Assembly (NCBI RefSeq): GCF_026626765.1
Contig: NZ_JAPNJZ010000012.1
Span: 141,012 to 205,011 of the forward strand
From: Corallococcus sp. bb12-1
GTDB taxonomy: Bacteria; Myxococcota; Myxococcia; Myxococcales; Myxococcaceae
DNA: 64,000 nt
Reading direction: 5' to 3'
Shown: piece after piece, positions 33,238 through 35,873 of the stretch
How positions within the stretch are numbered: position 1 is the stretch's first letter
Layout: each line of letters starts with the position of its first letter
Made by a program: the position numbers and the translations under genes
Notes under the pieces: generated by a model
Database searches by the model: none
Told to the model about the DNA's origin: nothing
The model's input: the letters and a program-made list of their open reading frames with translations, nothing else

Positions 33238-34266
33238 GTGACGACGATGGGCTTTCCTGGAGGCGTGGTCCTGATGCGCGGTGCAGGGCGGTACGGAATG
33301 GGGGCCCTCGCGGTCCTCGCGCTGACGCTGGCGGTGGGGGGATGCGGCGGCGACGAGTGCGTCGACGCGTTCGACTGCCGTGACAAGGGAGCGCCCCCCG
33401 AGGGCCAGGCGTACATCTGCAATGCCGACAACGCGTGCGAGCTGCGCACCCTGACCCCCGTGCCCGAGGAGGACGCGGGCACCGGGACGGATGCGGGCAC
33501 GACGACGGACGCGGGCACGACGACGGACGCGGGCACGACGACGGACGCCGGGACGCCGACGGACGCTGGCACCGAGACGGACGCCGGGACGCCGACGGAC
33601 GGCGGCACGCAGGTGTGCGGCGGCGCGGTGGCGTGCAGGGATCAGAGCATCGACGAGCTGTCGCTGCGCACCAACATTGCGACGGGCACCATCGTGGAGG
33701 AGGGCACTACGTCGGGGCAGTTCTTCACGTACATGGATGGGCGGGCCGGTGGCTTGTCCGCGACGCAGTCGTACACCTACGCGCGCTTCACGCCCACGGG
33801 GCTGGTGAAGGTGGAGATTGATGATCAGTCCGCGCTCGCGTCGACGGCGTGGGACATCGCGGTGCGCCGCAGCGTCATCCGCGTGAACAGTGGCGTGTCC
33901 GGCCCGTCCTGCGTGACGGTGGCCCAGACGGCCGCGGGCACCACGTTCGACGCGGTCACCACCGTGGAGCCGACCGCGACCTTCCTCGCGGAGGCGTACT
34001 TCACCGCCAACACCTGCGAGCTCATCCTGGACGGCTCGGGCATCAACTCCCCGGCCACGGCATTGGCCACGTTCTGGAGCTACAACAACTGCCTCGTGAT
34101 GACCGACAAGGTCTTCCTGTTGCAGTTGGCGGACGGGCGTCACGTGAAGTTGCAGGTGGTGTCGTACTACGAGCCCGCCGCGCAGGCGCAGTGCAACTCC
34201 TCCGGCACGCTGCCGGCGGTGACTGGCTCGGCCCAGTACCGCATCAAGTGGGCTTACCTGCCGTGA
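33238..34266 (+). CDS. Lipoprotein with a (T/E)TDAGT low-complexity linker and a possible HmuY-like beta domain
   Basis: Lipobox LAVGGC. Seven (T/E)TDAGT repeats. C-terminal domain with WDIAVRRSVIRVNSG and a YRIKW tail. Confidence 0.55.
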   Translation: MTTMGFPGGVVLMRGAGRYGMGALAVLALTLAVGGCGGDECVDAFDCRDKGAPPEGQAYICNADNACELRTLTPVPEEDAGTGTDAGTTTDAGTTTDAGTTTDAGTPTDAGTETDAGTPTDGGTQVCGGAVACRDQSIDELSLRTNIATGTIVEEGTTSGQFFTYMDGRAGGLSATQSYTYARFTPTGLVKVEIDDQSALASTAWDIAVRRSVIRVNSGVSGPSCVTVAQTAAGTTFDAVTTVEPTATFLAEAYFTANTCELILDGSGINSPATALATFWSYNNCLVMTDKVFLLQLADGRHVKLQVVSYYEPAAQAQCNSSGTLPAVTGSAQYRIKWAYLP

Positions 34267-35873
34267 TGGCCCCCGGGGTTCCCGCGCTGCTCCTGCTGCT
34301 GACCGGCGCGGGGACTCCGCACCGCCTCCTCCACGAGGAGGCGGTGGCGCCGATGCCGTGGGGGGTCGCCGAGTCCGGGCGGCCCACCTCGGCCACCGCG
34401 CCCGCGCCACGCTTCGAGCCGACGGAGACGGTGGAGTCCGCCGTCTCCGAGGGCAATCGCTTCCGCATCCACTTCACCCGCCAGGGGCCGAACGCGGTGC
34501 CGCTGGCGGATGAGGATGGCAATGGCGTGCCCGACTTCGTGGAACTCGTCGGACGCACCTATGAGCGCGTGGCGACGTTCTACACGGGTCTAGGTTTCCG
34601 CCTGCCGCCCGACGACGCGACCACGCCGGGAGACAACGGCGGCGACGGCCGCTTCGACGTGTACCTGGTGGACTTCGCCCTGCGCGCCGATGGTGCCTTC
34701 CGGATGGAGACCTGCCTGGACGGCACCACGCGCTGCACCGGCTACATGCTCCAGGAGAACGACTTCACGGGCTATGGCTACCCGTCCGACCAGGAGGCCG
34801 TGGAGATCCTGGCGAGCCACGAGTTCTTCCACGCCGTCCAGGCCGCGTACCGACCCGACCTGGGAGGCATCGCGTCCGAGGGCACCGCCGTCTGGGCCAC
34901 CGAACGCTTCGAGCCCGCGCTGGATGACCTGGAGGGCTTCAGCCACTACTACCTGGAGCTTCCGGACCGCAGCCTGCTGACGGATCCGAGCGGTCCCGCC
35001 GTGGGCTTCAGCTACGGGGCGGGACTCTTCTTCCAGTTCGCGGGCGAGCGCTTCGGGGATGCGCTCCTGGTCGCGTTGCTGGAGGAGTCCGTGCGGCAGC
35101 CGACCATTCGCTGGCCGCTGCTGCTGGACACCTGTCTGCGCCGCGACTTCGCGTCATCCTTCGATGCGGCCTTCACGCAGTTCACCGCGTGGAACCTGGG
35201 CACCGGTTCGCGCGCGACGCCCGGCTACGGCTACGCGCGAGGAGAGGGCTACGCGCCGCTGGTGACGACCGCCTCGGCGCTGCCCACGTTGCTTACCTCC
35301 ATGCGGGTGGGTGGCGCCTCCTCGCGCACCTTCGAGGTCGCGGGGAGCACGTCCTTCGTCACGGCCTCGTTCGAGCCCGAGCCGGGCACGGACCTCGCGG
35401 CACTGTCCCTGATGGTGGCGGCCGTCACCGATGACGCCGTGCTGCGCGTCGTCCAGGTGAGCGGGCCGGAGCCTCTGCGTGCCCAGGTGGCCGCGGAGGA
35501 TGCGACGCGGGTCGTGGTCGCCGTCGTGGATGGAAGGCCGCAGGGCCTGGGGCGCTATGGTGAGCTGTGCATCGCGGCCACCGGTCAGGATGCGGGCTGT
35601 GCCCCGGTGCTGCCTCCGCCGTCCGATGGTGGCACGGACGCCGGGACGGAAGATGCCGGTACCGTGGATGCGGGGACCGGAGACGCGGGCAGCCTGGACG
35701 CAGGCTCCGTGGACGCCGGAAAGCCCCAGGAGCCCATCGATGATCCGCAGGACCCGTCAGGGTCGGATGGCGGATGTCAGGCGGCGGGAGGTCCCTTGTC
35801 GGGTGCCTTCATCGCGCTGCTGCTGGGGCGGAGCCTCCGGCGCCGGTCACGGCCCGGCCCAGGGCTGATGTAG
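34266..35873 (+). CDS. Secreted HExxH metalloprotease-like protein with a MYXO-CTERM sorting signal
   Basis: Start overlaps the upstream stop (ATGA). HEFFHAVQ motif. C-terminal DAGT repeats, then GGCQAAGGPLSGAFIALLLGRSLRRRSR (Gly/Cys, hydrophobic, Arg-rich). Confidence 0.7.
   Translation: MAPGVPALLLLLTGAGTPHRLLHEEAVAPMPWGVAESGRPTSATAPAPRFEPTETVESAVSEGNRFRIHFTRQGPNAVPLADEDGNGVPDFVELVGRTYERVATFYTGLGFRLPPDDATTPGDNGGDGRFDVYLVDFALRADGAFRMETCLDGTTRCTGYMLQENDFTGYGYPSDQEAVEILASHEFFHAVQAAYRPDLGGIASEGTAVWATERFEPALDDLEGFSHYYLELPDRSLLTDPSGPAVGFSYGAGLFFQFAGERFGDALLVALLEESVRQPTIRWPLLLDTCLRRDFASSFDAAFTQFTAWNLGTGSRATPGYGYARGEGYAPLVTTASALPTLLTSMRVGGASSRTFEVAGSTSFVTASFEPEPGTDLAALSLMVAAVTDDAVLRVVQVSGPEPLRAQVAAEDATRVVVAVVDGRPQGLGRYGELCIAATGQDAGCAPVLPPPSDGGTDAGTEDAGTVDAGTGDAGSLDAGSVDAGKPQEPIDDPQDPSGSDGGCQAAGGPLSGAFIALLLGRSLRRRSRPGPGLM

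Follow-up and report, generated by a model that had tools for sequence, protein, structure and literature searches.

Homologues of MVP, the major vault protein, have already been described in bacteria of the Myxococcales, Cytophagales and Oscillatoriales (bioRxiv 10.1101/872010; PMC3762200), and the question raised by the locus studied here is whether such a protein forms a functional unit with the genes that follow it. In a 64,000-nucleotide stretch of Corallococcus sp. bb12-1 (contig NZ_JAPNJZ010000012.1, positions 141,012 to 205,011; hereafter the window, from whose first letter all coordinates are counted), an MVP gene is followed on the same strand by a gene for a lipoprotein and a gene for an HExxH protein with a MYXO-CTERM tail. 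An earlier note on this DNA took these genes, together with two GDSL lipase genes carrying signal peptides upstream of MVP, as a possible cluster joining a cytoplasmic cage to envelope proteins, and all the genes that it named are indeed present in the sequence. Our analysis leads to a different reading, to which we give a probability of about 60%: the segment 33168-35873 is a self-contained two-gene cassette with a Fur-type operator, and is the Corallococcus orthologue of MXAN_6641/MXAN_6640 of Myxococcus xanthus.

A conserved gene pair orthologous to MXAN_6641/MXAN_6640

A scan of one genome per species, made with an alignment of the HExxH protein, gave 214 relatives, of which the best 80 loci (numbered with an L below) were kept and searched by tblastn for the positions of the window proteins; the kept loci with informative names are Myxococcota, plus two other taxon labels. 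In 75 of the 80 loci the HExxH gene has an HmuY-like gene upstream of it on the same strand, and in 67 the two genes abut or overlap. The pair spans Myxococcaceae, Archangiaceae, Polyangiaceae and Sandaracinaceae, and the two genes are, as the earlier note had read from a single sequence, a tightly coupled pair. No other universally conserved neighbour was found by crude open reading frame (ORF) clustering over the 80 loci, the larger clusters (a kinase, NadA and unknowns) being confined to subsets of loci; this clustering missed an S8 subtilase that was later detected by tblastn.

At the junction in the window, the next start after the lipoprotein stop is either ATG 34266 (1-nt overlap, TGATG) or GTG 34263 (4-nt overlap, GTGA), so that the genes do abut or overlap as had been noted, through these letters rather than through ATGA. 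The junction is identical in nine of the ten Corallococcus loci; in the tenth (L008), ~50 nt separate the stop of the HmuY-like gene from the first aligned HExxH residue downstream. A longer, upstream start of the HExxH gene, as given in some annotations (P0002, P0016), is less likely than ATG 34266.

The closest homologues of the HExxH protein are from Corallococcus (94% identity to C. terminator), and its M. xanthus orthologue is MXAN_6640 (P0016), the founder of the family NF045524. The M. xanthus pair shares with that of the window the gene order, the abutting junction, the operator block (ATATTGAAtATGAGAATCGTTATC in strain DK1622) and the MYXO-CTERM tail, and identity to the Myxococcus loci L011/L016 is ~51% for the HmuY-like protein and 55% for the HExxH protein. 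In Corallococcus, unlike in M. xanthus, the lipoprotein carries an additional Cys-rich mini-domain at its N-terminus as well as a long TDAGT linker, and the protease has lost its lipobox Cys. The upstream neighbour also differs, being MVP in the window and an ABC transporter in DK1622.

Three records stand apart by their labels. L054 (BNCN01000012.1, 'Comamonas sp. KCTC 72670') and L043 (CAYHHL010000011.1, 'uncultured Enterobacteriaceae') carry a typical myxobacterial cassette, and L020 (JBLZWL010000129.1, 'Corallococcus terminator BB12-2') carries a Myxococcus-type cassette with 56% identity to the window and an operator context resembling that of M. qinghaiensis. These three records are probably mislabelled or misbinned.

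A Fur-box-like operator in the MVP-lipoprotein spacer

The spacer between MVP and the lipoprotein gene holds the only match to the Fur-box consensus with at most three mismatches in the window, and no such match arose in 100 shuffles. Every Corallococcus, Myxococcus and Pyxidicoccus locus, including that of DK1622 and loci without MVP, has the block ATATTGAAwATGAGAATCGTTATC upstream of its HmuY-like gene, with flanks that are unalignable between genera. Furthermore, all matches with at most three mismatches in 1.39 Mb of fetched loci precede either the cassette or a TonB-receptor/HmuY cluster. The operator also fits the Fur 7-1-7 consensus much better than the Zur or PerR consensus, and it appears to be a Fur-type site. 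Since this conserved operator travels with the pair, the pair has its own regulatory region.

A TTGAAA-17-TATGGA arrangement overlapping the operator might conceivably act as a promoter; the consensus scan did not call it, because its -10 element ends in a base other than T. The earlier note had suggested looking for a terminator between MVP and the lipoprotein gene, and what lies there is the conserved Fur-box-like operator: no plus-strand terminator was found by consensus scan of 30500-36300 and none of canonical form in this spacer, so some read-through from MVP is possible. Apart from the AT-rich palindrome of the operator, RNA folding of the spacer showed no more than a weak hairpin (z = -1.8). 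A search of 30-37 kb against Rfam gave no match at E<=1 and therefore no riboswitch or small RNA.

Relation of the pair to MVP

The view that MVP, the lipoprotein and the MYXO-CTERM protease are one co-transcribed functional cluster, tying a cytoplasmic cage to the envelope, can draw on their common strand, on a spacer of only 83-92 nt that lacks a canonical intrinsic terminator, and on an adjacency kept in seven Corallococcus loci. These seven (L001, L002, L006-L010), all from Corallococcus near the window and from one subclade, are however the only ones among the 80. MVP is missing near the cassette in the other 73, among them three Corallococcus species in which the pair has no adjacent MVP, namely C. 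llansteffanensis (L003), C. sicarius (L004) and sp. CA053C (L005), and no MVP lies within 10 kb of the pair in M. xanthus DK1622. Conversely, the pair is absent in all three of the other MVP contexts examined. In CA053C, an MVP with 93% identity sits in the conserved PBP4-RdgC-unknown-GDSLx2-MVP context with unrelated genes downstream, and the pair is found next to haem-uptake genes on a different contig. The MVP of Melittangium and Vitiosangium is placed between ruvA and ruvB, again with unrelated genes downstream.

The homology of the window to L003, L004 and L005 (blastn) starts at 33119-33165 and ends at ~35840, and thus covers the operator and the two genes. These limits, just ahead of the operator and at the protease end, indicate that the cassette moved as a unit, and together with its own conserved operator they count against a cluster with MVP. 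We therefore regard such a cluster as very improbable: the co-occurrence across genomes on which it depended is not seen by synteny, and the adjacency of MVP, confined to part of Corallococcus, is an accident of gene order specific to that lineage.

The MVP of the window is itself a typical myxobacterial homologue with Vault repeats and a shoulder domain, and the neighbours of MVP differ between genera. The MVP genes of Melittangium boletus and Vitiosangium (L084:8001-10274 and L085:8001-10286) lie between ruvC-ruvA and ruvB, beside a gene for a DksA/TraR-type zinc-finger protein, in surroundings quite unlike those of MVP in Corallococcus.

The HmuY-family lipoprotein

The lipoprotein ORF has a third-position G+C of 0.92, and its start is most likely ATG 33247, preceded by AAAGGTGA. 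Orthologues keep this start, and P0241-P0243 are annotated as beginning there; GTG 33238 is a less likely start. By inspection, the signal peptide has a lipobox, LAVGGC, whose Cys33 (33343-33345) is invariant in 45 sequences, and the lipobox and the linker repeats together confirm the lipoprotein with a TDAGT low-complexity linker that had been described from the DNA.

Membership of the HmuY family is indicated by the Pfam model HmuY (PF14064), which scores 42.6 bits against a cut-off of 27 (E 8.6e-11), and by the profile of 45 homologues, which matches the HmuY-family chains 8b6a, 8b61, 3h8t, 3u22 and 6eu8 in the PDB (BfrB, BfrC, HmuY, Bvu, Tfo). The AlphaFold2 (AF2) model has a mean predicted local distance difference test (pLDDT) score of 81, with values >90 for residues ~125-339 and <50 for linker residues 73-120, which are predicted to be disordered. 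All 12 Foldseek matches of this model in the PDB at E<=0.001 are HmuY-family structures, among them BfrB (7e-8) and HmuY (1.2e-5), with target TM scores of 0.46-0.66. By its model the lipoprotein is an HmuY-fold protein, which may bind haem.

The leader of the lipoprotein (residues 18-110, 33298-33610), made up of signal peptide, Cys-rich mini-domain and DAGT linker, is 70% identical to the N-terminus of P0334, an unrelated TolB/PD40-type Corallococcus lipoprotein. The mini-domain reads CGGDECVDAFDCRDKG...CNADNACEL and has an AF2 pLDDT of ~80-89; HmuY-like orthologues outside Corallococcus are without the leader. From these alignments, it looks like a shuffled N-terminal module.

As had been pointed out, both proteins of the pair carry DAGT-type linker repeats, from which a shared origin or shared processing had been suggested. 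The two proteins are alike only in this low-complexity sequence, and we rejected the repeats as evidence of common origin, leader and linker being 70% identical in the unrelated TolB/PD40-type lipoprotein as well. On sequence grounds, the shared linkers are generic low-complexity sequence.

The putative metalloprotease

The HExxH protein matches the NCBIfam family NF045524 ('MXAN_6640 family putative metalloprotease') with 245.1 bits against a cut-off of 140, over model positions 1-289 of 290. H185, E186, H189 and E205 do not vary across 55 family members, which is the signature of a gluzincin. The tail has a Cys-containing motif, a hydrophobic helix and an Arg-rich end, and the MYXO-CTERM model TIGR03382 gives it 21.7 bits, above the cut-off of 15.85; HEFFH and this tail bear out the protease-like gene with a MYXO-CTERM-type end that had been proposed. 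With TIGR03901, the window protein scores 16.4, under the cut-off of 20, and the M. xanthus orthologue 23.5.

The catalytic domain has the fold of the M30-type proteases hyicolysin and lugdulysin, and the protein is a putative M30/lugdulysin-like gluzincin that may have proteolytic activity. Identity to the Staphylococcus enzymes (MEROPS M30) is only 13%, with no sequence-level match in Pfam or PDB (none in the PDB at E<=1), and the PPC-like domain, the low-complexity linker and the MYXO-CTERM anchor are myxobacterial additions relative to them. The protein is best treated as a separate family in clan MA(E).

The N-terminal ends of the orthologues were also compared. At the positions corresponding to 34266-34330, those of Corallococcus begin with M(A/T)xGVPxLLLLL(T/A)GAGTP, and those of Myxococcus, Pyxidicoccus and Polyangiia have a lipoprotein-type signal such as MKLRALLLLLPFGCGP.

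Haem-uptake and subtilase genes beside the pair in relatives

In the three Corallococcus species without adjacent MVP (L003-L005), the cassette has as neighbours genes for a cytochrome c552-like protein, a TonB-dependent receptor, another HmuY and HemS/ChuX, together with a second Fur-like box. The cassette of Cystobacter and Archangium (L017-L019) makes up the distal half of a tightly packed array in which TonB receptor, HmuY, HmuY-like and HExxH genes follow one another in one direction, with a Fur-like box ahead of the receptor in L017. Receptor, HmuY or HemS genes also occur within 10 kb of the cassette in L022, L028 and L064.

In ~28 loci outside Myxococcaceae, of Polyangiia and Sandaracinaceae type, the pair comes with an orthologous Peptidase_S8 subtilase (tblastn; 52-74% identity between loci). 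Seven of these (L023, L029, L037, L044, L058, L061 and L066; e.g. L037:8060-11392) have it as an in-frame fusion to the N-terminus of the HExxH domain, and in ~20 further loci a separate gene directly beside the pair encodes it. Near the pair in Corallococcus and Myxococcus there is no such subtilase.

Layout of the window

The coordinates are collected in Table 1. The G+C content of the window is ~69%, and genes were told apart from spurious ORFs by third-position G+C. The tandem GDSL lipase genes at 28925-30720 are paralogues. In L006, no GDSL lipase lies between the 'unknown 229-aa' gene and MVP, and there is no GDSL match anywhere in L006 or L007, so the GDSL part of the MVP neighbourhood is variable as well. 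Behind the cassette, RNA folding of 35860-36030 gave -86.4 kcal/mol (z = -3.1; none of 200 shuffles as stable), and the two hairpins in this spacer are possible bidirectional terminators.

Table 1. Positions of the cassette, its parts and its neighbours in the window, and of cassette/haem-uptake neighbourhoods in related loci
Feature	Coordinates	Strand	Description
Conserved Fur-box-like operator block	33168-33193	+	ATATTGAAAATGAGAATCGTTATCGA
19-mer core of operator	33173-33191	+	GAAAATGAGAATCGTTATC; 16/19 match to Fur-box consensus GATAATGATAATCATTATC
Possible sigma-70-like promoter	33171-33199	+	TTGAAA (33171-33176), 17 nt, TATGGA (33194-33199); overlaps operator
HmuY-family lipoprotein gene	33247-34266 (ORF 33238-34266)	+	339 aa; orthologue of MXAN_6641
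Cys-rich mini-domain of lipoprotein	~33343-33456	+	
TDAGT linker repeats of lipoprotein	33471-33609	+	Predicted disordered; 18-nt repeat, 7.7 copies
HmuY-fold domain (predicted)	~33619-34263	+	
Gene junction	34263-34268	+	GTGATG; stop TGA 34264-34266
Putative zinc metalloprotease gene	34266-35873	+	535 aa; MXAN_6640 family
Catalytic gluzincin domain (predicted)	~34383-35270	+	
HEFFH motif	34818-34832	+	Residues 185-189
Invariant Glu205	34878-34880	+	
PPC-like beta-sandwich	~35283-35585	+	
DAG(T/S) linker	35637-35716	+	15-nt repeats
MYXO-CTERM tail	35769-35870	+	GGCQAAGGPLSGAFIALLLGRSLRRRSR
GDSL lipase gene 1	28925-29824	+	Pfam Lipase_GDSL, signal peptide
GDSL lipase gene 2	29836-30720	+	Pfam Lipase_GDSL, signal peptide
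MVP homologue	30863-33154	+	Pfam MVP_shoulder 3e-45, Vault repeats; neighbour, not member, of cassette
GC-rich 12-bp hairpin	35891-35925	not assigned	In 149-nt convergent spacer after cassette; no U tract
Second GC-rich hairpin	35985-36009		In same convergent spacer; no U tract
Aromatic amino-acid hydroxylase gene	36023-37789	-	Convergent with HExxH gene
Cassette/haem-uptake neighbourhoods in relatives	L003:9647-15770; L004:7221-13392; L005:5882-9449; L017:6633-11428		

Discussion

What the cassette does can be approached from M. xanthus and from Porphyromonas gingivalis. No paper naming MXAN_6640, MXAN_6641 or MXAN_6639 in its full text was found, the genes appearing in supplementary tables only. 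There, both are induced during predation, at 2 h and 6 h respectively with log2 fold changes of 2.57 and 2.47 for MXAN_6641 and of 2.38 and 1.64 for MXAN_6640 (PMC9548883 Table S2A). They are induced together with siderophore and haem-uptake genes (PMC9548883), MXAN_6641 is annotated with a 'Putative Fur box' (PMC9548883 Table S2A), and the iron repressor in M. xanthus is FurA (MXAN_3702; PMC11388931). The HmuY of P. gingivalis, a lipoprotein of the outer membrane, is shed by the protease Kgp, and haem is freed from host proteins by gingipains (PMC2671838).

Taking these systems as a guide, scarcity of iron would cause Fur to leave the promoter-overlapping operator, a control for which the literature on the orthologue gives support, and both genes would then be transcribed and translated in a coupled manner. 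The first product would be an outer-membrane lipoprotein whose domain of HmuY (haemophore-type) fold is carried on a long disordered linker. The second would be an exported M30/lugdulysin-type gluzincin that bears a PPC-like domain and, for attachment to the surface, a MYXO-CTERM sorting tail. Proteolysis of haemoproteins from prey or lysed cells would release haem or porphyrin, which the HmuY-like protein would capture and pass to a TonB-dependent haem receptor encoded elsewhere. By analogy with the gingipains and HmuY/HmuR of P. gingivalis, release and capture of haem is the most likely job of the pair. The broader picture, a Fur-controlled 'haem piracy' module of predatory myxobacteria to which an S8 subtilase is fused or adjacent in Polyangiia, possibly with shedding of the partner, is one that we put forward tentatively and hold to be rather less probable than the two-gene cassette itself.

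The likeness to the Hmu system of P. gingivalis (HmuY, HmuR and gingipains) extends to the HmuY-fold lipoprotein, to the proposed iron control and the proposed haem-freeing and HmuY-shedding role of proteases, and, in Cystobacter and Archangium, to the TonB receptor-HmuY pair directly before the cassette. The protease is, in contrast, a zinc gluzincin in the same operon rather than a cysteine protease encoded elsewhere; the window has no receptor gene, identity to HmuY is only ~15%, and the ligand loops of HmuY with His134 and His166 are not covered by the hidden Markov model (HMM) alignments.

Several observations weigh against the reading of the cassette as a Fur-controlled system for haem. 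Many Polyangiia loci show no evident Fur-like box upstream of the cassette, Fur control in Corallococcus sp. bb12-1 itself is something that we infer from the operator, and the consensus scan of 30500-36300 called no promoter. The HMM alignments to 3h8t and 3u22 neither cover nor conserve the ligand loops of HmuY. The closest solved relatives of the lipoprotein are BfrB, which binds haem without coordinating the iron, and BfrC, which binds no porphyrin (PMC12106395). No match to a TonB-dependent receptor, a second HmuY or HemS was found anywhere in the window. As for the protease, no Pfam peptidase model matches it (no Pfam family at E<=0.01), and its N-terminus in Corallococcus (MAPGVPALLLLLTGAGTP) is atypical, with neither a basic residue nor a lipobox Cys, unlike in other genera; the export route is for this reason uncertain, and export is assumed.

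Some of these observations lend themselves to an alternative without haem, in which the HExxH protein is a secreted nutrient or predation protease and the ligand of its HmuY-fold partner is a different porphyrin, a metal or a peptide, or else the protease, for which the partner would serve as chaperone or inhibitor. Iron would then be only one input to the control of the pair, or a different Fur-family regulator would use the operator. Such a role would suit the varied ligands of the HmuY family, with BfrC as the extreme case (PMC12106395), and the axial-ligand positions that the HMM alignment does not map. It would also suit the induction of both genes during predation along with many lytic enzymes, and the lack of nearby haem-uptake genes at most loci. 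We nevertheless consider it unlikely, as the cassette has repeatedly and independently come to lie beside TonB receptor, HmuY or HemS genes in at least nine loci from several families, and MXAN_6641 and the haem-cluster gene MXAN_1317 have parallel expression profiles. The operator, too, is much nearer to the Fur 7-1-7 consensus than to those of Zur and PerR.

Alternatively, the protease may act mainly on its own partner. As a sheddase or maturation enzyme, it would cut the disordered linker of the lipoprotein and free a soluble haemophore, in the way that Kgp cleaves HmuY off the membrane (PMC2671838). The strict pairing and translational coupling of the two genes speak for this, as does the long linker between the lipid anchor and the HmuY domain (pLDDT <50 for residues 73-120). 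However, most orthologues outside Corallococcus are proteins of ~260 aa with much shorter N-terminal regions, and the S8 subtilase fused to or beside the pair in other lineages points to proteolysis of a broad kind and not to a single specific cleavage. Dedicated shedding appears about as improbable as a role without haem, and release and capture of haem from proteins of prey or lysed cells is the reading that we prefer.

The cassette is an ordinary member of a named, experimentally uncharacterised family, and a functional link to MVP is not supported. The idea of a bacterial vault-protein operon tied to envelope proteins thus loses support, while the function of MVP is untouched by these data. 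The MXAN_6640 family emerges as an M30-like gluzincin that is nearly always paired with an HmuY-fold lipoprotein, is preceded by a Fur box in Myxococcaceae and is repeatedly joined to haem-receptor genes. This offers a testable hypothesis of how predatory myxobacteria may gain haem or iron from their prey and, if true, the cassette would represent a genetically hard-wired pair of protease and haemophore.

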